A DNA stretch of 49,783 nt from Candidatus Pacearchaeota archaeon CG06_land_8_20_14_3_00_35_12 (GTDB lineage: Archaea; Nanobdellota; Nanobdellia; Pacearchaeales; PEVX01), in the NCBI GenBank assembly GCA_002780285.1, contig PEVX01000019.1, positions 1 through 49,783 of the forward strand. The letters run 5' to 3'. Both the position numbers and the translations under genes were made by a program. This document shows positions 21,149 through 47,316 of the stretch, one piece after another (position 1 is the stretch's first letter; each line of letters begins with the position of its first letter). The notes under the pieces were generated by a model. That model ran no database searches and was not told the DNA's origin. It saw only the letters and a list, made by a program, of their open reading frames with translations.

Positions 21149-21149
21149 T

Positions 21150-23653: not shown

Positions 23654-24535
23654 ATGATAGACATTACAAGCGCATTGCTTATTGCATTAAGCCTCATTTA
23701 TGGTGGAATTGCAATTTATCAAGACATAAAAAAAAGAGAAGTTTCAAATTGGGTAAATTTCAGCTTCATAGCTCTGCTTTTTTTCGTGCTTTTATTTGAA
23801 TCAATAATAAAATTGGAATTTTACCCTATTTTAATCTGCCTCATAGCATTGGGAATTTATTTTGGAATGGCAAATTTATTCTATTATGGAAGAATTTTTG
23901 CAGGAGGTGATGCAAAACTGCTCATGGGCTTGGGAATTGCAGTCAGTTCAATCTCAATAACTGCACTTAATTTTCCAGCTTTTTTTAATACGCTTCTCTC
24001 ATTTATGGCAAACATCTTATTTTTAGGTTCTATATATGGGCTCGGCTATTCTCTTGTTCTTTATCTAACATACAAAGACAAAAAAAGAATTAAAAGATTA
24101 AGTGAAGAAATCAAAAATAAAAATAAAAAGATTTACACTACAGCACTAATATTCTCTTTGATTTTTATAGCACTATCGATTCTACTGAAAAATATTTATT
24201 TTTTCGTTCTTGCCATTTTAATCTTCATTTCTTCAAAACTTCTGATTTCATTAAAGGTGATTGAAAATTGCTGCCTGGTAAAAGCAATTCCTGTTTCACA
24301 ATTAAGAGAGGGAGACTGGCTCAGTATACCGTTTAAAATAAAAGGAAAAAAAGAGATTATTCCAACATGGGATGGGCTAACAAATAAAGATATTGAAAGA
24401 TTAAAGAAATACGAGAAAGGTAAAAAGATACTCATAAAAGAAGGCCTGCCCTTCACGCCAGTGATTGTTTCTGCATTTATTGTTTATCTTATTTGGGGCA
24501 ATTTATTATATTTGATAGTTTTATTAATGGCTTAA
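23654..24535 (+). CDS. A24-family prepilin/preflagellin peptidase (PibD/FlaK/EppA-like)
   Basis: Polytopic membrane protein. First catalytic Asp context GGIAIYQDIKKREVSNW, second IFAGGDAKLLMGLG (GxGD type). Extra soluble C-terminal region of about 80 aa. Confidence 0.8.
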   Translation: MIDITSALLIALSLIYGGIAIYQDIKKREVSNWVNFSFIALLFFVLLFESIIKLEFYPILICLIALGIYFGMANLFYYGRIFAGGDAKLLMGLGIAVSSISITALNFPAFFNTLLSFMANILFLGSIYGLGYSLVLYLTYKDKKRIKRLSEEIKNKNKKIYTTALIFSLIFIALSILLKNIYFFVLAILIFISSKLLISLKVIENCCLVKAIPVSQLREGDWLSIPFKIKGKKEIIPTWDGLTNKDIERLKKYEKGKKILIKEGLPFTPVIVSAFIVYLIWGNLLYLIVLLMA

Positions 24536-28592: not shown

Positions 28593-29342
28593 TTAGTTTA
28601 TTTTCAATGCAACAGCCATAAAAATCGGGGCATACCTGATAGAACTAACATCAGCAAAAAGATAATTTCTTGTTGTTGAAAAATTCAAAAGTAGATAACC
28701 CGAGCTAATAGATTTGTCAGAAACTATCCATCTGTCTGAATTCATTGAAATGCAGTTCAGAATATCATCTTTTGATTTGCATTCATTTATTTTTGAATTG
28801 ATTTTTGAATAAATTTCTGGAAAATCAGTAAAGTTAATTCTGATTTCTGTCAGATTGATTGAAAAACTTGGATTGTAGGAATAATTCAATTCAAAATCTC
28901 CTTCATTGCCATAAAATGTCAGATTTTTAGTATCTGCATTCATTTTCAAGATTTGATTATCCAATATTGGCTTGTAATCTGGAGAAATTTTCAGAAATTC
29001 AATAAACTTTCCATTTATTTGTTCTATTTTTGGGTTGCAATTATCATTCCAAATAACATGATTGTTATATATCTCGCAAGAATCATCAAAAACCGCGGCT
29101 TTTAAGGCTATTTGCTGAAATGTCTGCTGAAGTGAGATAAAAGAATGGTCTGTCGTATAAATTTGATCTGTTGTTTTGTTTAGATTGAGCTCCTGAACTT
29201 TCTGTGGAATCTCTATGCTGACTAAATTTTTCTTTTGCTCATTAGAAAAAACTACAATAACATAGATAGAAATGACTAAAAAAGTCAAAAACAGGCCAAT
29301 TGCAAAATAATGCCCTTTTTTGTTAGTCTTAAGGTTTTTCAT
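28593..29342 (-). CDS. Pilin-like protein with class III signal peptide (5th gene of a five-gene string)
   Basis: MKNLKTNKKG|HYFAIGLFLTFLVISIYVIVVF. TAA-A-ATG junction with the upstream gene. Confidence 0.6.
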   Translation of the reverse strand: MKNLKTNKKGHYFAIGLFLTFLVISIYVIVVFSNEQKKNLVSIEIPQKVQELNLNKTTDQIYTTDHSFISLQQTFQQIALKAAVFDDSCEIYNNHVIWNDNCNPKIEQINGKFIEFLKISPDYKPILDNQILKMNADTKNLTFYGNEGDFELNYSYNPSFSINLTEIRINFTDFPEIYSKINSKINECKSKDDILNCISMNSDRWIVSDKSISSGYLLLNFSTTRNYLFADVSSIRYAPIFMAVALKIN

Positions 29343-29343
29343 T

Positions 29344-29847
29344 TTATTTGTTAGGTTTTTCTATTCCAAAATTTATTGTTGCATTTTGATTAATGGAAAG
29401 AGGCAAGTATAAAATCAATTGAGATTCTTTTTTTGCAGAATATGCTGTTGAAACAACAGTTATTTTGTTGGTGCAATCAACATAAAAACCATAAAGTGCA
29501 TAATTTTCATAAACAGAATCAAAAATTTTCTTTGTTTCTGTTTCTAATAGCGGAACATAAGAGCTATCAATACAGGCAAGCTTGATTAAATTCGACATTG
29601 TCAGATTCTCATTTTTTCCATTTATTGCAACCTGCACAGGAGTTTCTAAATAACCTTGCAAAGTGACTAATGCCTCGGATTTTGTCAAAGAACTGATTGT
29701 TTCAGGAGAGATATTTTTGAAAACAAGACTTGGTGCAATTATCAGGAAAAAAGCTGCAAGTAAGATTCCTATAAAGATGGTAACAAAAAGATAAGTGAAT
29801 ACTTTACCTATTGCTCCTTTTTTGTTTTTTAATAAATTGCTTGTCAT
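29344..29847 (-). CDS. Pilin-like protein with class III signal peptide
   Basis: MTSNLLKNKKG|AIGKVFTYLFVTIFIGILLAAFFLII. TAA-A-ATG junctions on both sides. Confidence 0.6.
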   Translation of the reverse strand: MTSNLLKNKKGAIGKVFTYLFVTIFIGILLAAFFLIIAPSLVFKNISPETISSLTKSEALVTLQGYLETPVQVAINGKNENLTMSNLIKLACIDSSYVPLLETETKKIFDSVYENYALYGFYVDCTNKITVVSTAYSAKKESQLILYLPLSINQNATINFGIEKPNK

Positions 29848-29848
29848 T

Positions 29849-30358
29849 TTACATCAAATTTTTTTCTATTTTCAAAATATCTACATTCAAATCAAGAATA
29901 AAAGATGTATTTGTTGAATTTAGAAGATAGTATTTGTACTGCCGGCAAACTGGAAAATTAGTAATTTTTGTGCCTTTTTTCATTGCGGCACATAATGGCA
30001 ATACGTCTGTATTTCCCCATGAAAGTTCATTGATTTTTGACTGTGAGGAATTGTAAAGAACAGCAGAGATATAAAAATCCTTTTTCTGTTCTGCTGAAAA
30101 ACCAATGCATTTTTCAAAAATATCTATATTTAAATTGGATTCAACAAGATAAAGTTTATCTTGCATTTGAGTTGTTATGCATTTTACAAATCTATCAGAA
30201 ATAGCTGAGGCTTCTATATCGCGAACATCATAAGGCCTTGAATAAACAAAAGTTACAACCAAAACAATTGAGCCAGCTACAACAAGAAGCAAGAATATTC
30301 TATAAAACCATAGAATAATTTCTGCTCCAAGCGCGGCTTTTTTGTTTTGAAATATCAT
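29849..30358 (-). CDS. Pilin-like protein with class III signal peptide
   Basis: MIFQNKKA|ALGAEIILWFYRIFLLLVVAGSIVLVV (Glu at +5 if cleaved after KKA). TAA-A-ATG junctions. Confidence 0.6.
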   Translation of the reverse strand: MIFQNKKAALGAEIILWFYRIFLLLVVAGSIVLVVTFVYSRPYDVRDIEASAISDRFVKCITTQMQDKLYLVESNLNIDIFEKCIGFSAEQKKDFYISAVLYNSSQSKINELSWGNTDVLPLCAAMKKGTKITNFPVCRQYKYYLLNSTNTSFILDLNVDILKIEKNLM

Positions 30359-30359
30359 T

Positions 30360-30764
30360 TTAGATTTTGCAGATGATTATTGAAGGAAGTTTAACTTTAA
30401 GAGTGGATTTTTCTCCCTCTGTTCCCTGAGCAATTTGTGGAGAGGGAGATGAAGGAACTCCTTGTTCGCAATTTACAGGCAATATAGAAAAGAAAGAATA
30501 GCTTTTTTTGTCTACAAAAACATCTTTTTCTCCGAAAGTTATTGCAAATGGAGAAGTTATCCTGAATGTTGTTCCTGAACCGCTGAAATCTATGCTTAAT
30601 GCAAGCTCTTTTGTAAGCGCCTGCTGCTTGATTAAATTATTTTTTGCTGCATTGTTTACGAATAAGATCAATGATGAAAAAATAAAAATGATGAAAATTA
30701 ATTGGAATATCACATTATAAAGTTCTTCCTGCCCTTTTTTATTTTCAAGAAATTTTCTTTTCAT
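30360..30764 (-). CDS. Pilin-like protein with class III signal peptide
   Basis: MKRKFLENKKG|QEELYNVIFQLIFIIFIFSSLILFV. Confidence 0.6.
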   Translation of the reverse strand: MKRKFLENKKGQEELYNVIFQLIFIIFIFSSLILFVNNAAKNNLIKQQALTKELALSIDFSGSGTTFRITSPFAITFGEKDVFVDKKSYSFFSILPVNCEQGVPSSPSPQIAQGTEGEKSTLKVKLPSIIICKI

Positions 30765-30782
30765 TTTTAATTGATAAAATGT

Positions 30783-31688
30783 TTATGGAATGCTCTTTAT
30801 ATTGCCACATTTCTCATATAATTCAGTAGGAGTGTAAGGAACTAAATTCAGAATATAACAGCCCTCCAAATTTCCGTTGCAGTATGCAGACGCCATCACC
30901 CCTTGCATATGCTGAGAAAAAAGCTGAACTGGAAGGAGAACCATTCCAAACCTCAATAATCCCTTAGTTAAAGTTCCAATTCCCGCTCCCTTGAAAAGAA
31001 GTATATTCCCGCCCTCAAGACCAAGAGCAAGAGCAAGGTCTTTTTTTAGGGGCTCCCAAAAATCTTGTCCTTTTATTCCCATAAAAATCACGGCATAATC
31101 CTGTGAGGTTTTGACATATGGATCGATTGCTGTTTGAGTTGAGAGAGCAACACCTTTTTGATTTGCAAAATATTCACTATAATTAACATTCTTTCCAGGA
31201 ACGGGGGTAGTATCTAAATATTTTAGAAGATTAACTTGGGGTGTTTGTTGGCTTATTGATTTATCAAAATGAATAATAGAACAGATTAAGCAGGTAGTTT
31301 TGGGATTAAATCCAACAGAGGTCAGTTCAATCCATGCGCCTTCAGAAAGAAAATTATATTTTCCCTCTCCAAGCATCCACCAGCAATCATATAATGCTCC
31401 CGTAATTTCCTTATTTATCTGTGCTTCATTTGCTGTTTCAATTGAAATATTTTGGGTCTTGCATTTTAAGGGCATTTCCTTGAAGACATATTCTGTTCCT
31501 GGAATTTTATTTAATACTGGGAATTCTCCTGACTTTGCAATAACAGAGGCGTGGCATGTTTCTTTTGTGACTGTGTTTATGAATAGATATCTAAGCGGGC
31601 CTAAAAATGCAAAAACTACAAGCAATGCTGCGACGCTAATAATAATCCCGATTAAAACTTCTCTCTGTATACCTCTTTTATTCATCAT
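30783..31688 (-). CDS. Pilin-like protein with class III signal peptide (first gene of the string)
   Basis: The internal start at 31688 gives MMNKRG|IQREVLIGIIISVAALLVVFAF. The track start at 31727 would leave only 15 nt to the divergent gene. Confidence 0.6.
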   Translation of the reverse strand: MMNKRGIQREVLIGIIISVAALLVVFAFLGPLRYLFINTVTKETCHASVIAKSGEFPVLNKIPGTEYVFKEMPLKCKTQNISIETANEAQINKEITGALYDCWWMLGEGKYNFLSEGAWIELTSVGFNPKTTCLICSIIHFDKSISQQTPQVNLLKYLDTTPVPGKNVNYSEYFANQKGVALSTQTAIDPYVKTSQDYAVIFMGIKGQDFWEPLKKDLALALGLEGGNILLFKGAGIGTLTKGLLRFGMVLLPVQLFSQHMQGVMASAYCNGNLEGCYILNLVPYTPTELYEKCGNIKSIP

Positions 31689-31742
31689 ATAGATAAGAGA
31701 AGAATAATAATTATAAAGCTTTTGCAATTTTGAACTTTTAGG

Positions 31743-33284: not shown

Positions 33285-33386
33285 TTAAAAAACTCCAAGT
33301 CTTGTTAAAATCAGTTTAATTGCAAAAGCAATAAGTATTGCAAAAGCAACCCATACAGCAATTTTTATAATTTGGTCAAGCGTCAT
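33285..33386 (-). CDS. Possible 33-aa single-TM peptide at the operon end (below track cutoff)
   Basis: MTLDQIIKIAVWVAFAILIAFAIKLILTRLGVF. The ATG at 33386 lies 6 nt after the stop of the pilin-GH73 gene. Confidence 0.35.
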   Translation of the reverse strand: MTLDQIIKIAVWVAFAILIAFAIKLILTRLGVF

Positions 33387-33392
33387 TTTTGT

Positions 33393-34424
33393 TTATGCCA
33401 CTGCTGTTCCAGTAGCAGGGGATAAATAAATATTGCTTGCAACTGCAACTTTGATAACTCCTTCTGCCCAGTTTGCATCTGATGCATAAATACATGGTTT
33501 TCCTGCGTATGGCCCGCTGCATCCGGAAATCGCAAAAATCATTTGCTGGGGATCGTCTTTGTATTTCATAGCTTCGGTATATGCTGGGAGAGTTGAGATT
33601 ATACGCACAAAATCATTCACTGATTCGCATTGATCATGATATCTTTTAAATTCAGCTCCTCCTCTTGGTTTTCCACCAACAGTGCTGTATTCTGCAGACG
33701 GAACCCAATAACTAGTTCCAGCAGGCCCTGTTCCTTTAATTCCAAAAAGATTATACGCATAGGTTCCATCAAGGGGATTTTTTCCGCTTGCCAACCCGCT
33801 TGTTCCTCCTGCGCTTTCATGAACAGCAACGCCAATAATTACTTCAACAGGAACTCCTGAACTTGCAGAAGCATCGAGAATGCATTGTCCTAATCCTGCG
33901 AGAGCGGGATATTTTTTCTGAAGATATTCATCTAATTGTGTTTTTGAAGGGCGGTATGCTTTATATTCCCCAACAGGAGTCCCGCCAATATTATAATCTT
34001 TTTCTTCATTCAGCGCAACCAAGTAAAAATATTTTCCTTTTGGGGCAATTTGTTCTATAAATGGAAGTCCGCCTTTTAACAACGGCTTTGTAAGCTCTTT
34101 GCAAACAGTTTTTTCATTAGAGCAATCTGCTTTTCCAAATGAATCTGGGCAAATGCAAATTTTATTTCCTTCGCTCGAAAGCCACCAGCCTTGCGGGGTA
34201 TAAAGATACAAGAGTACACTATCTCCAATGTTCGAGGAATCTAAAGAATTGAACATTTCATCAAGTCTTGCGCTTGCTTGCTCTTTCTGTAGTTGCTGGC
34301 CATTCCAACAACTTGCCATAAAAGAAAATGCCCAAAAAAGCATCAATACAACTATGGCTCCGATTATTAAATCAAAAATAAATTCAAGCAAGGCAAATCC
34401 TCTTTTATTTTGCTTAAGTAACAT
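33393..34424 (-). CDS. Pilin-like N-terminus fused to a GH73/FlgJ-type peptidoglycan N-acetylglucosaminidase domain
   Basis: N-terminus MLLKQNKRG|FALLEFIFDLIIGAIVVLMLFWAF (checked against the DNA). C-terminal SSGVPVEVIIGVAVHESAGGTS...YNLFGIKGTG...SAEYSTVGGKPRGGAEFKRYHDQCESVNDFVRII...YASDANWAEGV matches the glucosaminidase-domain motifs as recalled for E. coli FlgJ (GVP..ILAQAALESGWG, YNLFG[IV]K, TTEYE...FRVY..., YATDP.Y). Confidence 0.8.
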   Translation of the reverse strand: MLLKQNKRGFALLEFIFDLIIGAIVVLMLFWAFSFMASCWNGQQLQKEQASARLDEMFNSLDSSNIGDSVLLYLYTPQGWWLSSEGNKICICPDSFGKADCSNEKTVCKELTKPLLKGGLPFIEQIAPKGKYFYLVALNEEKDYNIGGTPVGEYKAYRPSKTQLDEYLQKKYPALAGLGQCILDASASSGVPVEVIIGVAVHESAGGTSGLASGKNPLDGTYAYNLFGIKGTGPAGTSYWVPSAEYSTVGGKPRGGAEFKRYHDQCESVNDFVRIISTLPAYTEAMKYKDDPQQMIFAISGCSGPYAGKPCIYASDANWAEGVIKVAVASNIYLSPATGTAVA

Positions 34425-34469
34425 CAGAAATTAAAAGAAATCTCTTATTTAAAACTTATTTTTACAATT

Positions 34470-34661
34470 TTATGGCTGTGTTACATTAGTTGCCTTCCAT
34501 GCTCCGAAAATCTCTTTTATCTTGTTCAGGAGGTCTGGAAAAATATGCTGGCCGGTTGCCACCTGCCAGAAAATAAGAGTTATAACAAGGACTAAAACCA
34601 CGATAATAATTATGACAAGAGTATCGACAGGAAGCCCCTGCGCTTTTTTTCTTGAAAGCAT
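34470..34661 (-). CDS. Small pilin (63 aa) with class III signal peptide
   Basis: The ATG at 34661 gives MLSRKKA|QGLPVDTLVIIIIVVLVLVITLIFWQ... The track start at 34685 would overlap the upstream gene. Confidence 0.6.
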   Translation of the reverse strand: MLSRKKAQGLPVDTLVIIIIVVLVLVITLIFWQVATGQHIFPDLLNKIKEIFGAWKATNVTQP

Positions 34662-34675
34662 TTTAGAAAAGCAGA

Positions 34676-35017
34676 TCATGCACAAGTTATTACTGCATCA
34701 CAGATAGAGCCTAAAATTTGCTTGCATGTTTTAGAAACTGCTTTTCCTGTTGCAGTGTCCAAAACACTTACTTTCATGCAGCAGGCTGCCTCTTTAGATG
34801 TCAAAAATGCAGAATCACAATAAGCCTTGGCATCTGCATCAGTCATTGTCCCTGCGCCAAAAAAGCCAGCTATTCTTGGCCACACATTGCTCCATCCTAC
34901 TGTAAATCCAAAAATTAAAAAAACCATGACTAAAACAGCGAGAATAATTATTATAATTGTTGTAACATTAATTTCCTGTGCTTTCTTTTCTTTCAAGAAA
35001 CTTGAAATATTTTTCAT
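34676..35017 (-). CDS. Small pilin (113 aa) with class III signal peptide, Cys-rich globular part
   Basis: MKNISSFLKEKKA|QEINVTTIIIIILAVLVMVFLIFGF..., then 6 Cys in about 60 aa. Confidence 0.6.
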   Translation of the reverse strand: MKNISSFLKEKKAQEINVTTIIIIILAVLVMVFLIFGFTVGWSNVWPRIAGFFGAGTMTDADAKAYCDSAFLTSKEAACCMKVSVLDTATGKAVSKTCKQILGSICDAVITCA

Positions 35018-35082
35018 TTTTTCCTCTTTTATTAATGGATTATAATGGGATATGTTATTTTTAAAGATTTCTTTTTAGCCTC

Positions 35083-35949
35083 TTAAGCAGCAGGAGTTGT
35101 CGTTGGAGTTATCGTGCTTGAAACAAGATGCGTCGCAAGCTTCAAATATTCCACGCATCCTTTTCCAACTCCGCCTGTCTCACTTGTACATGAAATATTA
35201 GCATAATTTGGCAGAACTTTTTCCTGTATTGAGGAATTAAAAAAACAAAAAGGATTAATATGCAGGCTTGCTTTGCCTCCGAACACTGGATAGGCATAAA
35301 CCACAATAGCTTGTTTTTTTGTTGTTTCCCATGAATTTTGACATATTTGCGCATCTGTTAATGTTCCAGTAGCCAAAGATTCAATCACTTCAAAATGAAG
35401 ATGATCTTTTTGGACGAATGCAATTGTATCTCCTGCTTTTACAGGTTGTTTTTCTTTCACTTTGATTTTCAGTCCATCCAGATGAATATATCTTGTCCAA
35501 AAACCACCATGAGAGATTAAAACAATTCCGCCACTGTCTGTAAATGGATCAACATCCTCAACTGTTCCATCAGCTGCTGCAAAAACTGCTCTTCCTTTAG
35601 GAGCAGGAATATCTAGCCCCGCATGGCATCTGCTTGAATCATCTTTTGTAGTTTTTGTTTTGGAGGGAACAGTCTGTCGCAAAGCAAAACATGAACTAAT
35701 ATAAAGAGTAGGTGAATCAACAGGCCATAACAAACTGCCACTGATTCTTTCTCCTGTTGATCCTATTGGCAAATTTTCTGGGGAGATTAACTGATAATTC
35801 GCCGGCTCTTTGCTGTAGGTGTCTCCGCCAAGGTTGTTAATAAGATCTGAAAGATAGGGCTTTGCTTGCCATATGGCCCAAATAGTTATCGATATGACTG
35901 CCAATACAATAATTATTGTAGCAATTGTTGCTATGCCTTCTTCTGCCAT
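35083..35949 (-). CDS. M23/LytM-family peptidoglycan endopeptidase with N-terminal membrane anchor
   Basis: HxxxD (CHAGLDIPAP), GRAVFAAADGTVEDV, GGIVLISHGGFWTRYIHLDGLKIKVKEKQPVKAGDTIAF, HxH (DHLHFEV). N-terminal helix IATIATIIIVLAVISITIWAIW. Confidence 0.8.
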   Translation of the reverse strand: MAEEGIATIATIIIVLAVISITIWAIWQAKPYLSDLINNLGGDTYSKEPANYQLISPENLPIGSTGERISGSLLWPVDSPTLYISSCFALRQTVPSKTKTTKDDSSRCHAGLDIPAPKGRAVFAAADGTVEDVDPFTDSGGIVLISHGGFWTRYIHLDGLKIKVKEKQPVKAGDTIAFVQKDHLHFEVIESLATGTLTDAQICQNSWETTKKQAIVVYAYPVFGGKASLHINPFCFFNSSIQEKVLPNYANISCTSETGGVGKGCVEYLKLATHLVSSTITPTTTPAA

Positions 35950-35966
35950 TTTATTTTAAATTAAGT

Positions 35967-36131
35967 TTACTTCCCAAATCTCAAAAAATCAGCGAATTTG
36001 TCAATAATGTTAAATCCCTTAACTCTTGCAAGATAAATAAACCAAATCATCAGCGCAAGAACTGCAAGAACAATAATCCATAATGCAATCTCATTCCATG
36101 CAAGCTGCCCTCTTTTATTCTTTATTTTCAT
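35967..36131 (-). CDS. 54-aa pilin with class III signal peptide (below track cutoff); candidate major pilin
   Basis: Manual translation gives MKIKNKRG|QLAWNEIALWIIVLAVLALMIWFIYLARVKGFNIIDKFADFLRFGK. Open from ATG 36131 to TAA 35969-35967, immediately downstream of the platform gene. Confidence 0.6.
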   Translation of the reverse strand: MKIKNKRGQLAWNEIALWIIVLAVLALMIWFIYLARVKGFNIIDKFADFLRFGK

Positions 36132-36162
36132 TTTGTTTTAACAGATTATCTGAATTTAAATT

Positions 36163-38310
36163 TTATGCAACTGCAGCAGAAACAGCAATTCCTGCGAGAA
36201 CAGTCAAAGCAACAATCGCAATCAAAGATATCACAATATATAATCCGATTCCTGTATAGAGATTTTTTGAAATTTCATAATCTTCTCCGAGTTCATCAAC
36301 TCCTGATTCCACAGATACTAAAGTTCTTGTCAATATGAAAATTATTTCAATAATATAAACTCCAACAGCAAGCTGCAGCCAATAAGGTGGAATCATTTTG
36401 CTTATGTCCATAATCTGAGTAATATTTGATACACTTCCAATTCCTGCGAACTGAGCCTCTCCTGAAACCTCTCCTGTTACAAACATTGTCTGCAGTTTGT
36501 TCACAATAGTAGTTATCATTGACGCAAGCCCAACAACAATTCCTGCAAGCACAGGCGCAAGGAATGTCATGTTTGACTTCATTCCAGACACTACATCTGC
36601 TAGCAAATCTCTCAATCTTTCATTTACTTTATGAATATTTTTTACATACTCGCTTATTGACATTAACGCACGAGCTGCAACCTGCAGCCCTTTTTTTACA
36701 GATTCTACAAGAATCTGCATGCTTGTTCTTATCAATGATGATGGAAAATAAATTATTGCGCCTCTTTGCTTGTTGAATATTGATTCTTCTACAGACATTC
36801 CTGTGCTTTGTATATTCGCATTCACTAATGAAAAAAATCTGGCTGTTGGCGTGCCTCTTAATGAGCTTGCGACTCTGCCAAATGCAATTTCAGCAGGCAA
36901 TCCATCACCTAAACGGTTTCCCAATTGGAACAAAGATGATGCAAATTCTGTTTCTAGCATTTTTGTCTGCTCTCGAGTTTTAATTAATTTTTTTGTTTTG
37001 GATCTGTACGCAATCGCAAAGAAAAGCGCGATAGATATTGGAATGAACAGGCTTAATAGCAAAGCCATAGGGCCGAAAGGGCCTGCTGTAACTCCTGAAA
37101 TTGTCTTGTAATCAAAAAATTTCATGTCTTGCAGGAAAGTAATTCCAAATTGCGCAAAAGAATAATCTTTTTTTATAAACAATGGAATTAAACCTATAAT
37201 AAAAAAAGGAATTGCAATGAAAAAGGCTTTTACATAATGTGATTTGCTTTTGTAATGTCCGTAATCTGGATTTAGTTCAAGCATTTCTGTTTCACCATAT
37301 CCGCCTGGGCGTTTTGCAAGAGCGCTAGAAGTAAGATAAAAAACAAAAAATGGAATAAGAATATTAAAAAGAAGAATGACATGCCACCATTTTATCGCGC
37401 CTTGAAGCAAAACAGATGCCAAAGGAAGCAAAGCAATTGCAAGTGTAGGCAAAACAATTCCAAGCATATAGATATTTGTCAGCGGATTTTTTACATCGTG
37501 GGCATAATGAAGCATTTTTTCATAAACTCCGTCAAGAATGACTGTTAGAGATTTTTCAAGAATCAGTATTCTATTCTCGTCGCTTGGCTCATAAAGGCTT
37601 GATTCAATCAAATGAAAAGCTTCTACGAATTCAATGCTGTAGTCTCTCCATGTTTCAAGATAAGCATCAAGAGCATCTTTTACAGTAGAATATTTTCCTG
37701 TTTCAACATTCCAAAATATCTTTTTTAAATCAAGTGCGAGCGGAGGCTGCAAATGCTGAGAAGCAAATTTAATTGCAAGCTCTAAATTTGAAGAATGACG
37801 CATGTGAATTACAATATAAAGAATGCAGGGCACCATTTGTGAGCTTGCCTTCAGTCTCCATCTCTGGGCAAACCTGGCCGGCAGATTGTAAGTGTAATAA
37901 TAAACAAAAACACAGATGACAAGCATCAGAAAAACAGCCAATGCTGAAAAAATTCCTGTTGCAAACCATATTCCAAGTATCAAAAGCAGAGAAGACACCA
38001 ATGTTACAACCAAAGCCAAAATTGAAAAAGCTGCTGCATCGCTCGGAGTGATATCAAGATGGGCGGTCTGCAGAGATTCTGAAAATTTTTTCTCGTCTTT
38101 TTCATTTATGCGCAATTTAAATGCTTTTCCAATGTTTTTGCACAATCTTTCATAAAAAGACAAAGTTGGCTGGGTTTCTTTTTTGAATTTCATATATTCC
38201 TGAGTATATCCAGAATCTTCTGCAATATCTGTATGCACTTGCCTTTCTATCTTCGCGCCGTATCTTTCTAATATATCTGATACTCTATCATCACTTTTTT
38301 TATTTGCCAT
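36163..38310 (-). CDS. Polytopic pilus platform protein (FlaJ/TadC/PilC family, two T2SS-F-like repeats)
   Basis: 715 aa and many TM helices. Two cytoplasmic helical modules resemble T2SS-F domains (LELAIKFASQHLQPPLALDLKKIFWNVETGKYSTVKDAL... and LFQLGNRLGDGLPAEIAFGRVASSLRGTPTARFFSLVNANIQSTGMSVEESI...). Directly downstream of the ATPase. Confidence 0.7.
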   Translation of the reverse strand: MANKKSDDRVSDILERYGAKIERQVHTDIAEDSGYTQEYMKFKKETQPTLSFYERLCKNIGKAFKLRINEKDEKKFSESLQTAHLDITPSDAAAFSILALVVTLVSSLLLILGIWFATGIFSALAVFLMLVICVFVYYYTYNLPARFAQRWRLKASSQMVPCILYIVIHMRHSSNLELAIKFASQHLQPPLALDLKKIFWNVETGKYSTVKDALDAYLETWRDYSIEFVEAFHLIESSLYEPSDENRILILEKSLTVILDGVYEKMLHYAHDVKNPLTNIYMLGIVLPTLAIALLPLASVLLQGAIKWWHVILLFNILIPFFVFYLTSSALAKRPGGYGETEMLELNPDYGHYKSKSHYVKAFFIAIPFFIIGLIPLFIKKDYSFAQFGITFLQDMKFFDYKTISGVTAGPFGPMALLLSLFIPISIALFFAIAYRSKTKKLIKTREQTKMLETEFASSLFQLGNRLGDGLPAEIAFGRVASSLRGTPTARFFSLVNANIQSTGMSVEESIFNKQRGAIIYFPSSLIRTSMQILVESVKKGLQVAARALMSISEYVKNIHKVNERLRDLLADVVSGMKSNMTFLAPVLAGIVVGLASMITTIVNKLQTMFVTGEVSGEAQFAGIGSVSNITQIMDISKMIPPYWLQLAVGVYIIEIIFILTRTLVSVESGVDELGEDYEISKNLYTGIGLYIVISLIAIVALTVLAGIAVSAAVA

Positions 38311-38348
38311 TTCACCCCTTATTTATACTAATTTAATATTTTAATTTA

Positions 38349-40643
38349 TTAATCTACTCTGGCCCTTTTTATTTCATCCTTGAGCCATTTCTGCCATCTA
38401 GGCAGGACTTCCTTGCTTAAAGGAACACCAATTTCTTCGCGAATAGAAGATGATATCTGATGAAATACTGAATTTGATTTTACAACAAAAGGAGCTTCTA
38501 AAAGTTCTGGAATCTTGGCTTTAATTGAAGCATTCAACAATTCTTCTTTTATTTTTGCTCTTAATAAAATATTATCCCACAGAGCATCCCAATTTCCAGC
38601 CCAGCCTTTTACATTAGAGGCAATATCTTTCAAAACATCTGACTCTCCAACCATTAATTCATCTGTTGCTTCAAGCTCGTCTTTTTCAATATTATATGTT
38701 AGCAAATCTGCAAAACCTCTTTCTTCAAAAGGGTCTTTTGTCCAATGTTTCCTGACTTCTGTGATTTGCAGCATTCTTCTCCAAGAATGCATTCCATCGG
38801 GGCTTTTTATTGGATTTGCAACAGCGATGATGTCTGTTGCTTTGAATGAAGTTACTGGAACATTCAAATCATTTACAACTCTGTCAAAAATCGCATATGG
38901 TGAAGCCCCATGAATTGTTCCTGCAACAACATTTGCCAATGCTCCTACTCTCATTGCTTCGTATAAAGCACGAGCTTCTTCACTTCTAACCTCTCCAACA
39001 ATCAAACATGAATCACCCAAACGCAGAGATGTTCTGATTCCTTCATCAGCTGGAACCTCTGTTGTTGCTTTCAACAATGCTGCTCTGACTTTCATTCTCA
39101 CGATATCATAATTTAATTTTCTAATTGCTTCTACAGGAAGTTCTAAAGTATCTTCAACAGTTATTATGCGATATTTTGGCATTATTTCAAGCATAAGGCT
39201 TCCAAGCAATGATGTTTTTCCAGAACTTCTTGTTCCTGCAATCAACATTGTTCTTGAACCATCTACTAAAAAACTCAGCAGTCCTGCCGCGAGAGGATTT
39301 ATCATTCTTTGTTTTATGAATAATGGAAGAGTCCATGGCTTATCACGATGTCTTCTAATAGCATATGCCAATCCGTCGGGTGCAAGTGGCTGCTGCATTA
39401 CTGCAATTCTTGCCCTTACCCTAGATAAAATTAAATCCGTATCGAGAACAGGATTTGCTTCATCCAAAGGACGTCCAGAAATCATTCTGAATTTTGCGGC
39501 CCATCCATCAACATCCTGAATGCTTGAGATTATATTTGTAGAACACTCATCAAAATCCTGATGCCTTACAAAAATTGGGGTTTGTCCCACTGGAGAATTT
39601 ATTACTATGTCCTGCAGTCTCTCATCTTGCAGAAGAACTTCAATCAAACCAAAGCCAATGGTATGTCGCACTAAAATTGTTGCAAGTCTTGTTAATTGTT
39701 TATATGTTAAAGTTTTTTTCTTGCTCTCACTCAATTCTGTCAGTAAATCTCTGGATATATTGAAAAAAACATTTCTTATTCTTTCAGGATCTGTAAATTC
39801 TTCTGCTTTTGGCTGATGTTCTGTTAAAACCTCTCTGGCGAGATTCAATAAGGTCGCCTCATCATCTGAAAGTACAAATTCTTGAGGAATCAAATGATAA
39901 ATTGGAACAATGCTGTTAGGAACTTTGAAAATAGTGACTGTGCTTTTATCAACTCCTTCTCCAATGACATATTCATCAAGAAGTTGAGCTTCTGGAGGAA
40001 TTGAAGCCATCAATCTTGTAAATGTAAAATTAGGAACAGATATCGGTCTGAACAATTTCTTATACAGTTCGCGATTTCCTACATGCAAACCTTCAATTTC
40101 CTGCATTACAGACTTCAAAATTCTTGTTTCTGCAAGCATAGACGCAATTTTTTCAAGAAGTCTAATATAGCGAGTCTCGCAAGAGGCACACTCATCAGGC
40201 ATTTTCTCTGCATTTATCCGTTCATCACGCAATAATCTCTTTGTTTCAACATAACAGCCAATAGGGTCTTGTTTCAACAAAAGCAAAACAAGATATCTCA
40301 GAGAATCATATCTTTGAGGCAGGCATCGCTGGCATTCTAATGTTAATTCTGAAACAGAAAGAACTTTTTCCTGCTTCAGGAGATAATTATAAAGCTGGGC
40401 AATTTCAAAAAGCATAGAAATCTGCTGCAGGTCATATGAATAATTTTGATTATGCTGCACAAAAACAATCCTTGAAACAGTTGGGGATTCAAGCAAAGCG
40501 TCGACAGTGCGGGCCATGCATACTGCTGAATCTGCAAGAGATGGAACAAATGGGGCACCAATGTAATTGATATACATAACTTCCTGCCCGGCTTCACGGA
40601 TTATTTCATAATTATAGATGGCAGTTTCTGGTTTGAAGATCAT
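38349..40643 (-). CDS. Type IV pilus/archaellum-type secretion ATPase (FlaI/PilB/GspE/VirB11 superfamily) with a long N-terminal region
   Basis: Walker A AGTRSSGKTSLL, Asp box IITVEDTLELP, Walker B CLIVGEVRSEEARALYEAMRVG, His box VAGTIHGASP. About 450 aa precede the ATPase core. Confidence 0.85.
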   Translation of the reverse strand: MIFKPETAIYNYEIIREAGQEVMYINYIGAPFVPSLADSAVCMARTVDALLESPTVSRIVFVQHNQNYSYDLQQISMLFEIAQLYNYLLKQEKVLSVSELTLECQRCLPQRYDSLRYLVLLLLKQDPIGCYVETKRLLRDERINAEKMPDECASCETRYIRLLEKIASMLAETRILKSVMQEIEGLHVGNRELYKKLFRPISVPNFTFTRLMASIPPEAQLLDEYVIGEGVDKSTVTIFKVPNSIVPIYHLIPQEFVLSDDEATLLNLAREVLTEHQPKAEEFTDPERIRNVFFNISRDLLTELSESKKKTLTYKQLTRLATILVRHTIGFGLIEVLLQDERLQDIVINSPVGQTPIFVRHQDFDECSTNIISSIQDVDGWAAKFRMISGRPLDEANPVLDTDLILSRVRARIAVMQQPLAPDGLAYAIRRHRDKPWTLPLFIKQRMINPLAAGLLSFLVDGSRTMLIAGTRSSGKTSLLGSLMLEIMPKYRIITVEDTLELPVEAIRKLNYDIVRMKVRAALLKATTEVPADEGIRTSLRLGDSCLIVGEVRSEEARALYEAMRVGALANVVAGTIHGASPYAIFDRVVNDLNVPVTSFKATDIIAVANPIKSPDGMHSWRRMLQITEVRKHWTKDPFEERGFADLLTYNIEKDELEATDELMVGESDVLKDIASNVKGWAGNWDALWDNILLRAKIKEELLNASIKAKIPELLEAPFVVKSNSVFHQISSSIREEIGVPLSKEVLPRWQKWLKDEIKRARVD

Positions 40644-40787
40644 TTTCTCTTTTTTGCTCTTTTTGCAGGGGCAAGTAGAAAAAGAAAAATTTGATTAAAT
40701 AGTTTTCGTTTTTCTTTATTCATTGGAAGAGCAAATATTTTAAACCTATTTTTCTTCTTAAAGTAAGAATATAAACAAGAGGTGAAA
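40644..40787. promoter_or_regulatory. Divergent intergenic region between the pilus operon and the coiled-coil genes (putative promoters, SD)
   Basis: AT-rich 144 nt. TATA-like aatattttaaac lies about 45-55 nt upstream of the plus-strand ATG. GAGGTGA at 40779-40785 lies 2 nt before the ATG at 40788. No experimental support. Confidence 0.3.
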
Positions 40788-41189
40788 ATGGCTGAAGAAG
40801 TTGCTTCTACTGCAGATTTTGCTTACATTGTAAACGCAAAACTAAATGGTGTTGAGGAAAAAACAGATATGCTTAGAGAAAAGATTCTTGCTCTTGATGA
40901 GACTTTTTTCGCTCAGGAAGAAAAGTTTAATAAAGAAATAAATTTAATCAAAGAAGATATAAAACAAATAAAAGAGGAGCTTTTGAGCGTTTCCGAAGGG
41001 CTTCAAGGCATTTTAAGAGAAATAACCAATCTCTCGCGCAAGGAAGAAGTCCGCGCAATTGAAAGGATGGTAAAAATGTGGGAGCCTCTTAAATTTGTCA
41101 AAGCTGATGAAGTAAAAGAAATGATAGAAGAAGCATTGGAAAAAAATAAACCTGAGGAAAAAAATATTCAGCATACACATATTGGTTAA
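40788..41189 (+). CDS. Coiled-coil protein, unknown function
   Basis: The ATG at 40788 follows GAGGTGA (the track start is GTG at 40782). Heptad-like, E/K-rich sequence (LREKILALDETFFAQEEKFNKEINLIKEDIKQIKEELLSV). Confidence 0.5.
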   Translation: MAEEVASTADFAYIVNAKLNGVEEKTDMLREKILALDETFFAQEEKFNKEINLIKEDIKQIKEELLSVSEGLQGILREITNLSRKEEVRAIERMVKMWEPLKFVKADEVKEMIEEALEKNKPEEKNIQHTHIG

Positions 41190-41201
41190 AACAAATGAAA
41201 A

Positions 41202-41867
41202 ATGGCAAATCAGAGTTTAATTGATTATATTGTTGGAATGCAGGCTGCGGGCATGAGCGACAGCGAAATAATTTCCAGGCTCAAAGATGAGGGCTATACT
41301 GCAAAAGACATTAATGATTCATTAAATCAATCAAAAGTTAAGATGGCAATTTCAGCAGGAGGACAAGAGGAAGAAGAGATGCAGCCTTCAATAACAGAGC
41401 AAGAAATACCAGTTCCATCTCCTCAGGCACAACCAATGCCGAGAGAAAGAAAAGCTCAAGTACAGCAACCACAATATGAAGAAGCATATCCAACATATCA
41501 ATATCCAGAAGCACAGGCAATGCCCGCCGCACCACCTCAAAAAGCAGATACAGAATATATTCAGGAAATTACAGAAGAAATAATAAATGAAAAATGGAGG
41601 GATTTTAGGAAAAAAATAGGCCCAATAGAAGAGTTCAAATCAGATGTTGAAAAAAGAATAGCTGTTGTTGAGGATAAGATTATAAAAATTGAAGAGATGA
41701 TGGATAAAATGCAAATAAGCATTCTTGGAAAAATTCAGGAATACGGAAGAAGTATTGAATCTGTAGGTTCAGAAGTTAGGGCGATTGAAGGCAATATCAG
41801 CAGGATGATAAGCCCTCTTGTTTCAAATATTAAAGAATTAAAAAAAGAAAAGCCAAAAAAAGCTTAG
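41202..41867 (+). CDS. Three-part protein: small N-terminal helical domain, Pro/Gln-rich linker, C-terminal coiled coil
   Basis: MANQSLIDYIVGMQAAGMSDSEIISRLKDEGYTAKDINDSL, then QPSITEQEIPVPSPQAQPMPRERKAQVQQPQYEEAYPTYQYPEAQAMPAAPPQ, then a coiled coil. Confidence 0.5.
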   Translation: MANQSLIDYIVGMQAAGMSDSEIISRLKDEGYTAKDINDSLNQSKVKMAISAGGQEEEEMQPSITEQEIPVPSPQAQPMPRERKAQVQQPQYEEAYPTYQYPEAQAMPAAPPQKADTEYIQEITEEIINEKWRDFRKKIGPIEEFKSDVEKRIAVVEDKIIKIEEMMDKMQISILGKIQEYGRSIESVGSEVRAIEGNISRMISPLVSNIKELKKEKPKKA

Positions 41868-41892
41868 ACATTCTAAATATTTTATTTTGTTT

Positions 41893-42402
41893 CTATTTTG
41901 ACTTAATTAGTATCCAGGTTACAATCATTGCAAGAACTAAAAGCAATAGTGTTCCAAAAACACTCGGATAAAAAACAACATCCTTCAAAGTTATTAAAAA
42001 AGGAACTCCTCCTGTTGCGGTTCTGCCTGGAAGATATGGCCTCAAAACAGGTCCTAAGACCTGAGATGCAGAAATTACAAAAGTTATAAGTAACAAAGCA
42101 AAGAACGTCCATGCGAGACCGGGATTCATGACTGCTTCAAGCTTTCCTGCGGTAAATCCTCCGAGAAGCAGTAGAAAAAATATTGTGACTAAAAAGACTA
42201 CAAACCACGGAGTTATTAAAGCAACATATTTTTGAGCTGCAGGAACAATTACGAAAAGCAAGGCAATAATAAAACTTGCAATTACCTGTAATGCTTCATT
42301 TGAACCGAGAAGCAAAGTCCTCTTAAAAATTGTATAAACTAGTATGAAAACAAGTATGAAAACCGCTACAGGTACAATATAGCTCATTAATGTCAATACC
42401 AT
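41893..42402 (-). CDS. Membrane protein, paralog 3 of a tandem family
   Basis: IVPVAVFILVFILVYTIFKRTLLLGSNEALQVIASFIIALLFV aligns with the N-terminal regions of 42437-42982 and 43185-43712. Confidence 0.55.
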   Translation of the reverse strand: MVLTLMSYIVPVAVFILVFILVYTIFKRTLLLGSNEALQVIASFIIALLFVIVPAAQKYVALITPWFVVFLVTIFFLLLLGGFTAGKLEAVMNPGLAWTFFALLLITFVISASQVLGPVLRPYLPGRTATGGVPFLITLKDVVFYPSVFGTLLLLVLAMIVTWILIKSK

Positions 42403-42436
42403 TAAAAATTTAAAAGGAAAGAGTATTTAATTTTTA

Positions 42437-42982
42437 CTAAACTTCTTTTTGCAAGAAATGTCCAATTTTGTCAACCCAATTCGTCTCTTTCTTTGGAAAG
42501 ACGGCAATAAGAAGCAGGGCAATCACTACATAGAGAAGAAGCATTTGAGGTGAAAGCAAGAATGCCTGAATATCAAAACCTGCTGCAGGAACATAGTCTT
42601 TCATTACATTTGTAACAATTATTGAAAAAATTACTATTGCTGTTGTTATGAAAATAAGCATAAACCACATCTTGTTTTTCTCTGGATTCAAAACAAATCC
42701 AAACAAGATTAACAATACCAAAAGAATTGAAACGCCAATAGCCATATTGGAAAAAAGTTTTGAGGTTACAGCTATCGCTTGCGGACTTCTGATTGTGAAA
42801 AAAGAAAGAACTATCGCGATTACTGCATTTAATCCCTGCCGGTTCTTCCCAAAAATTCCTGCTTTATCGAGAATGCCATAGAATACAAGAAAAAAAAGCA
42901 TGAAAGGCATTATTACATTGAAAACGCCCATTGATTCCCATTGAACCAAAACTTCCTCAAATGAAAAAAATCCTACTGCCAT
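42437..42982 (-). CDS. Membrane protein, paralog 2 of a tandem family
   Basis: IMPFMLFFLVFYGILDKAGIFGKNRQGLNAVIAIVLSFF, compared with ILPFLLIFTVVYAILEKSEILGKGKRQINAIVSLVIGLI in the upstream gene. Confidence 0.55.
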   Translation of the reverse strand: MAVGFFSFEEVLVQWESMGVFNVIMPFMLFFLVFYGILDKAGIFGKNRQGLNAVIAIVLSFFTIRSPQAIAVTSKLFSNMAIGVSILLVLLILFGFVLNPEKNKMWFMLIFITTAIVIFSIIVTNVMKDYVPAAGFDIQAFLLSPQMLLLYVVIALLLIAVFPKKETNWVDKIGHFLQKEV

Positions 42983-43007
42983 TTTATTTTTAATTTAAAT
43001 TATTTAA

Positions 43008-43183
43008 TTACCAACCGCCTTCTTTACCCATTTTTTAATTAAAGTCCTCCTCGTCCGCCATTCATTTTAATGTGTATCCATTTTATTTATCCGCCACCTT
43101 TCATTTTAATTAAAGTTTTCCTCCGCCTTTCATTTTATGCCTTTTGCCCTCCTTTCATTTTATGCCTTTTGCCCTCCTTTCAT
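43008..43183 (-). repeat. Degenerate tandem-repeat array forming a ladder of seven 4-8 codon mini-ORFs
   Basis: Two perfect 25-nt units (cctttcattttatgccttttgccct at 43126-43150 and 43151-43175), plus degenerate copies down to about 43010. The minus strand reads TAA-A-ATG AAA GGA GGG CAA AAG GCA TAA-A-ATG ... The peptides are MKGGQKA (x2), MKGGGKL, MKGGG, MDTH, MNGGRGGL, MGKEGGW. Confidence 0.85.
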
Positions 43184-43184
43184 T

Positions 43185-43712
43185 TTAATCAGCGCCCCCA
43201 GTTGAGGGTTTTTTCTCTCCGCCACTTGTAACTGCAATTGAAATTGCAGTTACGATTATTCCAAACATAATTACAGATTGCCAAAAATCACTTGCTCCAG
43301 GAGTTCCTAGATTTGTTGCAAACCATTCGAATCCTCCAACAGCCCATATTACAGAAACAATCAAAGTTATGCCTAATAATATTCCAAAGGCGATCCTCAT
43401 TCCAGGGCCAAGTCCACCCTTCTCTCCTCCGCCAATAAATCCAAACATCAGCATAAAAAGCAATAAAATTACAACAACTACAGAGATTACTGGAATTAAT
43501 CTTGTTATAACCCCAACAGCATATGGAACTCCAACTACAATCAGCCCAATAACCAAAGAAACAATAGCATTAATCTGCCTCTTGCCTTTTCCGAGGATTT
43601 CTGATTTTTCAAGAATAGCATAAACAACGGTAAATATCAGCAAAAATGGGAGAATTACTTGTGAGAAGAAAGGATGTGCGAATATTCCAAGCTGTGCTTG
43701 TTCACCTGCCAT
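43185..43712 (-). CDS. Membrane protein, paralog 1 of a tandem family (Gly-rich loop and tail)
   Basis: MAGEQAQLGIFAHPFFSQVILPFLLIFTVVYAILEKSEILGKGKRQINAIVSLVIGLIVVG... About 5 TM. C-terminus ...SGGEKKPSTGGAD. Confidence 0.55.
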   Translation of the reverse strand: MAGEQAQLGIFAHPFFSQVILPFLLIFTVVYAILEKSEILGKGKRQINAIVSLVIGLIVVGVPYAVGVITRLIPVISVVVVILLLFMLMFGFIGGGEKGGLGPGMRIAFGILLGITLIVSVIWAVGGFEWFATNLGTPGASDFWQSVIMFGIIVTAISIAVTSGGEKKPSTGGAD

Positions 43713-43728
43713 TTTTAAAGTAAAAGAT

Positions 43729-44007
43729 TTAGATTATCTCGTCTGATTCTTCTGAAGATGCTGATGGAATTGCGGCCTTGCTTATAATTACAACATCACC
43801 AACAGATTTTACAAATTGGTGCGGCACAATAATTCCTCTTGCCCCTCCAAGAAATGAAGAAACATTGCTTTCTCTTGCAACTCTCATTCTCCAACTTTCG
43901 ATTTTGTTGTCGAGAAGATTAGCCTCTTCAATCTCTCCGAAAAATTCACCTGAGTCTGTAAACACCTTCATACCAATCATTTCACTTATTTTTTTTATTT
44001 TTAACAT
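43729..44007 (-). CDS. PRC-barrel domain protein
   Basis: GMKVFTDSGEFFGEIEEANLLDNKIESWRMRV...GGARGIIVPHQFVKSVGDVVIIS fits the PRC-barrel pattern at about 90 aa. Confidence 0.6.
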   Translation of the reverse strand: MLKIKKISEMIGMKVFTDSGEFFGEIEEANLLDNKIESWRMRVARESNVSSFLGGARGIIVPHQFVKSVGDVVIISKAAIPSASSEESDEII

Positions 44008-45659: not shown

Positions 45660-45720
45660 TTTTCTTTCACAACAATAATGTATAAAAAGATTATTGCAGA
45701 CAAATAAAATTGTTAAAATG

Positions 45721-47274: not shown

Positions 47275-47316
47275 AGCATAACAATCCTTAAATCCTAATA
47301 AGTCTGCTAAATCAAG

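Follow-up and report, generated by a model that had tools for sequence, protein, structure and literature searches.

We analysed contig PEVX01000019.1 of the assembly GCA_002780285.1 (Candidatus Pacearchaeota archaeon CG06_land_8_20_14_3_00_35_12), a stretch of 49,783 nucleotides hereafter called the window, in which a minus-strand gene cluster at positions 33285 to 40643 combines an archaeal filament machinery with two enzymes of murein-cleaving families. One minor pilin of this cluster carries a GH73 glucosaminidase head, its pilin module holds a fixed position in related archaeal loci, and recognisable heads of five murein-cleaving families alternate on that module. We consider it likely that the protein is a modular pilin, probably displayed at a filament tip, which carries a murein hydrolase to bacterial walls, while the region as a whole is best explained as the core type IV filament (TFF) locus of a DPANN archaeon from the Pacearchaeota/Woesearchaeota group. 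An earlier annotation made from the sequence alone (the original prediction) had proposed that archaeal filament machinery displays a pilin-fused murein hydrolase against bacterial walls; the fixed-position module and its five swapped murein-cleaving heads strengthen this proposal considerably.

The modular minor pilin with the GH73 head is a protein of 343 aa encoded at 33393..34424 on the minus strand (PF01832). It begins with a class III-type signal (KRG↓FALLEF, the arrow marking the predicted cleavage site) and continues with a pilin module (residues 1-150, an alpha-1 helix and a beta-sheet with four conserved cysteines), a linker and the GH73 head (residues 163-334), and thus has both the pilin module and the separate, linker-joined C-terminal module of a modular pilin. 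We confirmed the predicted fusion, as the head matched PF01832 at 3.4e-13 (50.8 bits compared to a cutoff of 30.2) and kept its catalytic motifs. Glu203 (motif HES) aligned with the catalytic Glu of FlgJ, residues E203, Y313 and D316 (motif YASD) were invariant in the family, and FlgJ proteins were the nearest matches of the head both among solved structures and in NCBIfam. No PG_binding, LysM or SH3 domain was found in the protein by the Pfam scan. Full-length homologues were limited to a handful of close relatives of about 35% identity, all in syntenic loci with the order platform, ~55-aa pilin, ~200-aa membrane protein, ~120-aa pilin, ~60-aa pilin, GH73 protein, five pilin-like genes, RPA and RadA. 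The four cysteines (CxC...C...C; residues 90, 92, 101 and 108 in the window protein, alignment A4) were shared by the pilin modules of the whole family; two disulfides or a metal site could result from them, which is unusual for a protein of a presumably anaerobic, low-GC archaeon.

An AlphaFold2 model of the GH73 protein, built on an alignment of 146 sequences, reached a mean predicted local distance difference test (pLDDT) value of 78.7, with values per 10 residues mostly between 77 and 98 in the N-terminal module (an initial run with five sequences gave a pLDDT of 53.6, and that model was discarded and the run repeated with the 146 sequences). In the model, a long helix (residues 10-63) is packed on a beta-sheet (strands within 69-147), followed by a low-confidence linker (150-155) and a helical domain (163-334), and the predicted topology of the N-terminal module corresponds to the pilin 'lollipop'. 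A Foldseek search of the whole model against the PDB returned the GH73 enzymes LytB, AtlE and FlgJ as top matches (probability 0.93-0.98, E-values 7e-3 to 0.1), the modest E-values being caused in part by a poorly modelled loop of 50 residues in the head.

Related loci were compared in a census of the best 80 of at least 398 platform-bearing genome loci. A hidden Markov model (HMM) of the pilin family matched an open reading frame (ORF) downstream of the platform gene in about 60 of these 80 loci, and only through the N-terminal ~150 residues. The stronger matches occupied the same slot, 2-5 kb downstream of the platform on the same strand, and the conserved features of the module were the signal, an 'LQAKGTL' motif, P-x-G-W and the four cysteines. 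The part behind the module was a GH73 head in the window and in loci L001-L005 and L024, an SLT lytic transglycosylase head in L006, L021, L027, L035 and L064, a 3D head in L025 and L029, and an Amidase_2 head in L014 and L042; other loci had a C-terminus without a Pfam-recognised domain, or no head. Word-indexed searches were near-empty (four matches for the pilin-module profile), and an exhaustive HMM search was required, which found 1176 members in 1.84 billion representative proteins, 128 of them at E <= 1e-10. The best 150 of the 1176 family representatives were bimodal in length, with 94 bare pilins of ~120-230 aa and 56 proteins of 230-420 aa. Among the 56 long members, the Pfam families were SLT (14), Amidase_2 (5), Glucosaminidase (5), 3D (4) and VanY/Peptidase_M15 (2), with no further Pfam family at E <= 1e-3. 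Each of the five head families retained its catalytic signature; the residues were conserved to at least 90% in the four larger families and did not differ between the two VanY proteins (ES for SLT and GH73, the zinc ligands for Amidase_2, the LAS motif for VanY).

Closely related modules carried different heads, or none. The N-terminal modules of a bare pilin (P0027) and an SLT-bearing one (P0029) were 79% identical, those of the GH73 protein of L024 and the SLT protein of L064 58%, those of P0030 (SLT) and L004 (GH73) 57%, and those of P0126 (VanY) and L042 (Amidase_2) 41%. Because different heads are interleaved in this way on closely related scaffolds, they have been gained, lost and exchanged many times, and such repeated gain, loss and swapping means selection for 'any bond in murein'. 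The five head families have unrelated folds and cut the bonds between N-acetylglucosamine (GlcNAc) and N-acetylmuramic acid (MurNAc), that is GlcNAc-MurNAc and MurNAc-GlcNAc, as well as MurNAc-L-Ala and the peptide stem. Murein is the sole polymer with all of those bonds, and we therefore infer from what is known of these families that it is the common substrate of the five heads. Chitin, N-glycans and pseudomurein were considered as targets of GH73 and SLT and rejected as a common target, since Amidase_2, VanY/M15 and M23 need the MurNAc-peptide part, which is found in murein only. Pseudomurein contains neither MurNAc nor D-amino acids. To our knowledge, archaea of this group do not make murein, and the substrate would therefore be a bacterial wall.

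Two further observations concern the heads and their carriers. About 26 of the 56 long members had heads of 100-200 aa which were Pfam-less at E = 0.5 and fell into many small clusters (P0042, P0066, P0069, P0091, P0059, P0070, P0100, P0079 and P0076, and loci L007, L009, L023, L050 and others); scanning ten representatives of the Pfam-less heads to E = 0.5 resolved only the VanY case, and the others are candidates for novel wall-active or adhesive modules. SLT-like domains were also found on other pilin-like or membrane-anchored N-termini outside the conserved module family (L070:15298-16119 and L048:12153-13619), from which it follows that the locus recruited hydrolases on more than one carrier.

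The machinery that would assemble such a pilin was found in the same region. The secretion/assembly ATPase (764 aa; 38349..40643, minus strand) was assigned to the TadA/CpaF/FlaI/archaeal GspE family by Pfam, PDB and NCBIfam comparisons. It matched Pfam T2SSE at 2.7e-14, its best PDB matches were Archaeoglobus GspE (2OAP, 3.4e-25), CpaF (2.8e-22) and FlaI (4e-14), and its NCBIfam matches were TadA (7e-36) and FlaI (1.2e-35). The Walker motifs by which the original prediction had recognised it were present, in agreement with the family HMMs (T2SSE, TadA, FlaI). Of 84 related loci, 57 had an ATPase homologue in linkage with the platform. In two loci the ATPase-matching ORF upstream of the platform was much longer (1482 aa in L062 and 1823 aa in L018, compared to ~760 aa elsewhere), which suggests that the ATPase is fused to the product of an adjacent gene there, or contains an insertion such as an intein.

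The putative platform protein (715 aa; 36163..38310, minus strand) was identified from its context only, namely its roughly nine hydrophobic segments and the ATPase linkage in those 57 of 84 loci. The two T2SSF-like repeats earlier ascribed to it were not supported, as no T2SSF match was obtained in Pfam or NCBIfam, a PDB profile search was empty and an hhalign self-comparison gave no internal repeat. Platform homologues (53-64% identity) occurred in at least 398 GTDB species genomes, and the 80 listed loci came from Pacearchaeota, Woesearchaeota, Nanoarchaeota or unclassified archaeal metagenome-assembled genomes, with one exception labelled Parvarchaeum. A class III signal (prepilin) peptidase is encoded at 23654..24535 on the plus strand (Pfam Peptidase_A24, PF01478, 5.1e-8, above the gathering score; NCBIfam FlaK, 4.2e-5), and a Peptidase_A24 homologue lay within 10 kb of the platform in 28 of the 80 loci. 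Class III-type signals ([KR][GA] followed by a hydrophobic helix), called purely by motif inspection, were present on at least nine ORFs (KRG↓Q, KKA↓Q, KRG↓F, KRG↓I, KKG↓Q etc.). The window thus holds an assembly ATPase, class III signals and a Peptidase_A24 protein, as a TFF locus does.

The second enzyme of the cluster is a membrane-anchored M23 metallo-endopeptidase (288 aa; 35083..35949, minus strand; PF01551). Its predicted identity was confirmed by a match at 1e-17 (64.5 bits compared to a cutoff of 28.7) and by the motifs HAGLD, YIHLD and HLHFEV. All metal and catalytic residues were kept (H108-AGL-D112 as HxxxD, the catalytic His of YIH, and HxH), and the best NCBIfam matches were the murein endopeptidases Pgp3, MepM and ShyA. 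The N-terminus (MAEEG-IATIATIII) has no basic residue before the cleavage site and no K/R-G/A pilin signal, and the protein looks like a signal-anchored membrane protein rather than a pilin-like one. An M23 domain was found in none of the 84 other loci, and a word-indexed search of the protein against an index of 5.8 billion proteins returned only the self-match. A diverged orthologue of the ~200-aa membrane protein in slot 2 was considered and rejected (16-20% identity, no match to the slot-2 HMM). With no M23 in the other loci, no homologue and no relationship to the slot-2 protein, the gene is therefore read as a recent lineage-specific replacement. The complementary pair of glycosidase and endopeptidase stressed in the original prediction does exist in this organism, but it does not apply in general; across related archaeal loci, GH73 co-localised with the filament genes (L001-L005 and L024) and M23 did not. 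Judged from these loci, the general layout is a single minor pilin with a single hydrolase head.

The contig is archaeal and belongs to the Pacearchaeota/Woesearchaeota group of DPANN. Its proteins include RadA, RPA, aIF2-alpha, aEF-1beta, GINS51, a GINS-associated nuclease, S3Ae, S15/S13e, SRP54/FtsY and a split Hef/XPF, and archaeal markers flank the locus as predicted, with S3Ae, GINS51, aIF2-alpha, RadA, RPA and aEF-1beta on the left and the Hef helicase and XPF nuclease on the right. The GC content was flat (0.31-0.37) throughout the window. The exact order ATPase, platform, 54 aa, M23, 113 aa, 69 aa and GH73 was found on 19 contigs from at least eight separate JGI and ENA samples, and synteny was kept in 80 archaeal genome loci, including the closed 0.71-Mb Pacearchaeota genome (L027). 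Since this arrangement came out of separate assemblies of at least eight metagenomes, the locus is not a chimera with bacterial DNA, the possibility that the original prediction had named as fatal to it; bacterial contamination was ruled out likewise by the flat GC content, the flanking markers and the synteny.

We propose that the prepilin peptidase would cleave the GH73 protein after KRG, upon which the pilin module would enter a filament built by the ATPase and the platform. The modular subunit would most likely sit at the filament tip, by analogy with bacterial modular pilins (PMC8179133) and since the shaft of a filament can hardly accommodate a bulky head. The filament would present the peptidoglycan-cutting (and binding) head outside the cell, where it would bind and cut bacterial peptidoglycan at contact, resulting in a local breach or grip of the sacculus of a host or prey. 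In sister lineages the same scaffold bears a different head, namely a lytic transglycosylase (SLT or 3D), an Amidase_2 or a VanY/M15 peptidase, and in the window the M23 protein, which takes the slot of the usual second operon gene, would add cleavage of peptide cross-links at the cell surface. A bolder version, which we put forward tentatively and with less than even confidence, is that the filament of Pacearchaeota/Woesearchaeota with its interchangeable hydrolase tips works as a contact-dependent drill through living bacterial walls, and that the head repertoire (glycosidase, lytic transglycosylase, amidase and peptidase heads, and about 17% that match no Pfam family) tracks host wall chemistry and sets the host range. 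If this were true, cross-domain episymbiosis of archaea with bacteria, or predation on them, would have its first molecular mechanism.

Several points weigh against a tip-displayed pilin that acts on bacterial walls. The filament, the processing, the activity and the bacterial partner are all deduced computationally. The whole-model Foldseek search, which was dominated by the GH73 head, returned no PDB pilin for the N-terminal module, and the pilin fold therefore rests on topology and signal motif and not on a structural match. The platform protein is not tied by sequence to FlaJ, TadC or T2SSF, and the M23 protein, without a pilin signal, is coupled to the pilus by gene position only. A recognisable murein hydrolase head is the minority state (12 of the 80 genome loci), about 63% of the family representatives are bare pilins, and about 17% (26/150) have heads that match no Pfam family. 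The absence of murein in the organism is taken from general knowledge of Archaea and from PMC8204110.

An alternative explanation is that the pilus-borne hydrolase digests free or dead-cell peptidoglycan and supplies amino sugars and amino acids to an auxotrophic archaeon, so that no living wall is breached. This would agree with the minimal metabolism of Pacearchaeota, with the lack of any encoded membrane-damaging toxin in the locus and with the peptidoglycan of dead bacteria having been proposed as an amino acid source (PMC11537232). However, a diffusible secreted enzyme would suit feeding better than a single filament-anchored copy, the heads have no peptidoglycan-binding modules and are tethered to a pilin (the usual roles of which are contact and retraction), and the locus is not linked to genes for uptake or catabolism, and we regard scavenging as unlikely. 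Catalysis may also be irrelevant if the hydrolase folds serve as peptidoglycan-binding lectins which anchor the archaeon to a bacterium. Retention of the catalytic residues (in at least 90% for the four larger head families and in both VanY sequences) and of all metal and catalytic histidines in the window M23 protein makes a pure adhesin distinctly improbable, even though inactive M23/LytM binders are common in bacteria (NCBIfam matches EnvC, NlpD and ActS) and the characterised modular pilins are adhesins, e.g. with vWA or lectin modules (PMC8179133).

Dedicated wall hydrolases in filament operons are the rule in bacteria, where FlgJ, VirB1 and BfpH remodel the cell's own wall for filament passage, and the closeness of the GH73 head to FlgJ proteins, in solved structures and in NCBIfam, would fit such a housekeeping role. 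Most family members, however, are headless and yet have the same machinery, pseudomurein without MurNAc and D-amino acids is no substrate for Amidase_2, VanY or M23, and fusing an own-wall enzyme to a pilin that leaves the cell surface makes little sense. Because, in addition, the group is not known to make murein (as far as described in PMC8204110), we consider housekeeping extremely unlikely. The machinery could also be a secretion piston similar to the pseudopilus of a type II secretion system (T2SS), in which case the fusion would be a membrane-retained pseudopilin or would be cleaved to give a soluble bacteriolysin. T2SS and type IV pili are homologous, no retraction ATPase is present, and the combination of many minor pilin-like genes and a single very short pilin is reminiscent of pseudopilin sets. 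However, a secretin and other T2SS-specific components are absent and would have no use in a monoderm archaeon, the locus has no genes for separate secreted substrates, and the four conserved cysteines and the conserved module argue for a structural role of the module. We find this explanation very improbable, and it differs from a filament-displayed hydrolase in enzyme delivery only.

The GH73 protein has much in common with bacterial modular type IV pilins such as PilB (vWA) and PilC (lectin) of S. sanguinis (Raynaud et al. 2021; PMC8179133), namely a class III signal on a small N-terminal pilin module, a short linker, a C-terminal functional module, presumed tip display and a 'carrier plus swappable effector' logic. 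The bacterial proteins have an N_methyl motif and are mostly adhesins, whereas the family described here is an archaeal pilin family with four conserved cysteines in which every recognisable head is a murein hydrolase. In the catalogue published with the bacterial pilins, none of the 264 architectures carried InterPro identifiers of SLT, the lysozyme-like superfamily, Amidase_2, GH73, 3D or VanY, and M23 was found once, N-terminal of the pilin motif in a multi-domain entry (PMC8179133).

The statement in the original prediction that murein hydrolases had been noted before in some DPANN genomes was borne out by PMC8204110, PMC9723730 and PMC12352652. Large SLT proteins, giant and extracellular with up to 3000 aa, were described in Pacearchaeota and Woesearchaeota (Castelle et al. 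2021; PMC8204110), GH23 genes in 'vampiristic' Woesearchaeota (PMC9723730), and peptidoglycan hydrolases in 5% of archaeal genomes, with prominence in Nanoarchaeota and with bactericidal enzymes of the M23 and GH73 families among them (Strock et al. 2025; PMC12352652). The scope of the latter survey was Sec/Tat signals and peptidoglycan-binding domains, not pilins (PMC12352652). Bacterial hosts have been proposed alongside murein hydrolases in Pacearchaeota and Woesearchaeota (PMC8204110, PMC9723730, PMC11537232), while the cultivated DPANN so far all live on another archaeon (PMC11291902). Similar to the window proteins, Woldo/Danwoldo of Halogranum and the DPANN SLT proteins are murein-cleaving domains of bacterial origin in murein-less archaea and are read as acting on bacteria, with M23 and GH73 shared. 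The Woldo type is soluble, Sec/Tat-secreted and equipped with a peptidoglycan-binding domain, whereas the window GH73 protein has a class III signal, no binding domain and is a subunit of a filament operon.

Coupling of a murein hydrolase to a filament or needle for local cleavage is also known from FlgJ, VirB1, BfpH, PilT of the R64 thin pilus and the peptidoglycan hydrolases of phage virions and tail tips. FlgJ, VirB1 and BfpH cut the producer's own sacculus, however, the phage enzymes are not pilins, and homology is limited to the catalytic domain. In function, the nearest parallel comes from phage tail-tip enzymes, which cut a foreign wall from the end of a fibre. The machinery itself resembles archaeal Epd-like and bacterial Tad (Flp) filaments in its ATPase (nearest to TadA/CpaF, archaeal GspE and FlaI), its Peptidase_A24 protein and its very short pilin. 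Methanococcus Epd pilins are very short with Q at +1, as is the 54-aa pilin of the window. In contrast to Epd-like and Tad systems, the window platform is a single 715-aa protein without a detectable T2SSF signature, and the minor-pilin set is unusually large.

A 2026 archaeal TFF census (bioRxiv 10.64898/2026.04.22.720090) makes no mention of peptidoglycan, hydrolases or hydrolase-bearing pilins, and we found no description of a pilin-hydrolase fusion in Archaea in the literature searched, consistent with the earlier statement that no described system with this architecture was known. Within that literature, the fusion of pilin and hydrolase, its fixed place in the filament locus of DPANN archaea and the exchange among five hydrolase families appear to be new, whereas DPANN murein hydrolases and the idea of bacterial hosts were already known. 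The locus combines two known kinds, a modular pilin and an archaeal peptidoglycan hydrolase, and does not form a new category of system. Among uncultured archaea, Pacearchaeota and Woesearchaeota rank with the most abundant. A conserved pilus subunit with a murein hydrolase as its only recognisable cargo is evidence, read directly from genomes, for physical contact of many of these lineages with bacteria, and it names the apparatus by which they would make it. With it, the 'modular pilin' principle would extend to Archaea and would come to include wall-degrading enzymes as cargo, the head type could be used as a predictor of the host wall chemotype, and the ~26 Pfam-less head clusters are candidates for new wall-active enzymes.

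All eight minus-strand ORFs between 33285 and 40643 were found where the original prediction had placed them, separated by short gaps. Their list stands, but the end point does not, as the locus runs on for about 5 kb with five more pilin-like genes (28593-31727). The three short ORFs taken for pilins (54, 113 and 63-71 aa) do carry KRG↓Q or KKA↓Q class III-type signals and a hydrophobic helix, and all were characterised by reading the sequence. The Flp-sized pilin of 54 aa (KRG↓QLAWNEI...; 35967..36131, minus strand) had a homologue in 23 of the 80 loci, in the same position directly after the platform, and is a candidate for the major subunit. The 113-aa pilin (KKA↓QEINVTTIIII...; 34676..35017, minus strand) had a homologue in 45 of the 80 loci with unchanged order. 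The short pilin (KKA↓QGLPVDTLVIII...; 34470..34685, minus strand) comprises 71 aa from a TTG start, 69 aa in public assemblies and 63 aa from the Met chosen earlier; phmmer found a homologue in 10 of the 80 loci, and pilins of ~60 aa fill the slot in syntenic loci. The hydrophobic ORF of 33 aa (33285..33386, minus strand), earlier listed as a transmembrane peptide, exists and is called in some assemblies of the same organism, but it is doubtful as a gene, with a homologue in only one of the 80 related loci.

The five further pilin-like genes (~301, 134, 169, 167 and 249 aa; 28593..31727, minus strand) each encode a KRG, KKG or KKA signal with a hydrophobic helix, and the run ends at the RPA gene. 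The order ~300, 115, 150, 150-170 and 260 aa, RPA and RadA recurred in L001, L003, L004, L006, L013, L024 and L027, and a 314-aa ORF of this downstream run had homologues in 55 of the 80 loci. Overall, the pilin set of the locus consists of the Flp-sized pilin and about nine further pilin-like proteins. A plus-strand ORF of 513 aa with an N-terminal signal-like sequence (31743-33284) is inserted in the middle of the pilin operon; it had no match in Pfam or NCBIfam and no homologue in the 80 related loci. Elsewhere the opposite strand carried other, unrelated ORFs of secreted or lipoprotein-like type, the position of which varied (e.g. 200-270 aa right behind the platform; 680-725 aa in L014, L042 and L044).

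Beside the ATPase lies a conserved neighbour block (40782..44007, both strands) with two soluble proteins of 135 and 221 aa on the plus strand and three membrane proteins of ~170 aa and a 92-aa PRC-barrel protein (PRC match 1.1e-5) on the minus strand. Each of these proteins had a homologue near the platform in 45-50 of the 80 loci, the block adjoins the platform in L001 and L003, and its products may be uncharacterised accessory parts of the filament system. A second cluster (18097-22259, minus strand) encodes four large proteins of 305-393 aa with one weak CARDB match, two with clear pilin-like signals (MNKRG↓ISNY... and NKKA↓QGKL...), one with a lipoprotein-like N-terminus and one with a long hydrophobic N-terminus. 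One oxidoreductase gene lies between this cluster and the prepilin peptidase gene, and the cluster is almost unique to the organism (homologues in 0-1 of the 80 loci).

Outside the filament genes, Hef was encoded in two pieces, a helicase gene and an ERCC4 nuclease gene, which enclose a dCMP deaminase gene (45694-48562). The RadA of a relative (L003:15208-17673) contains an intein and measures 821 aa, compared to 332 aa without an intein in the window. A tRNA-Arg (GCG) gene at 25849-25922 overlaps the first third of a mechanically listed 96-aa zinc-finger ORF (25647-25937), and the true start of this HVO_2753-like protein is probably an internal Met.

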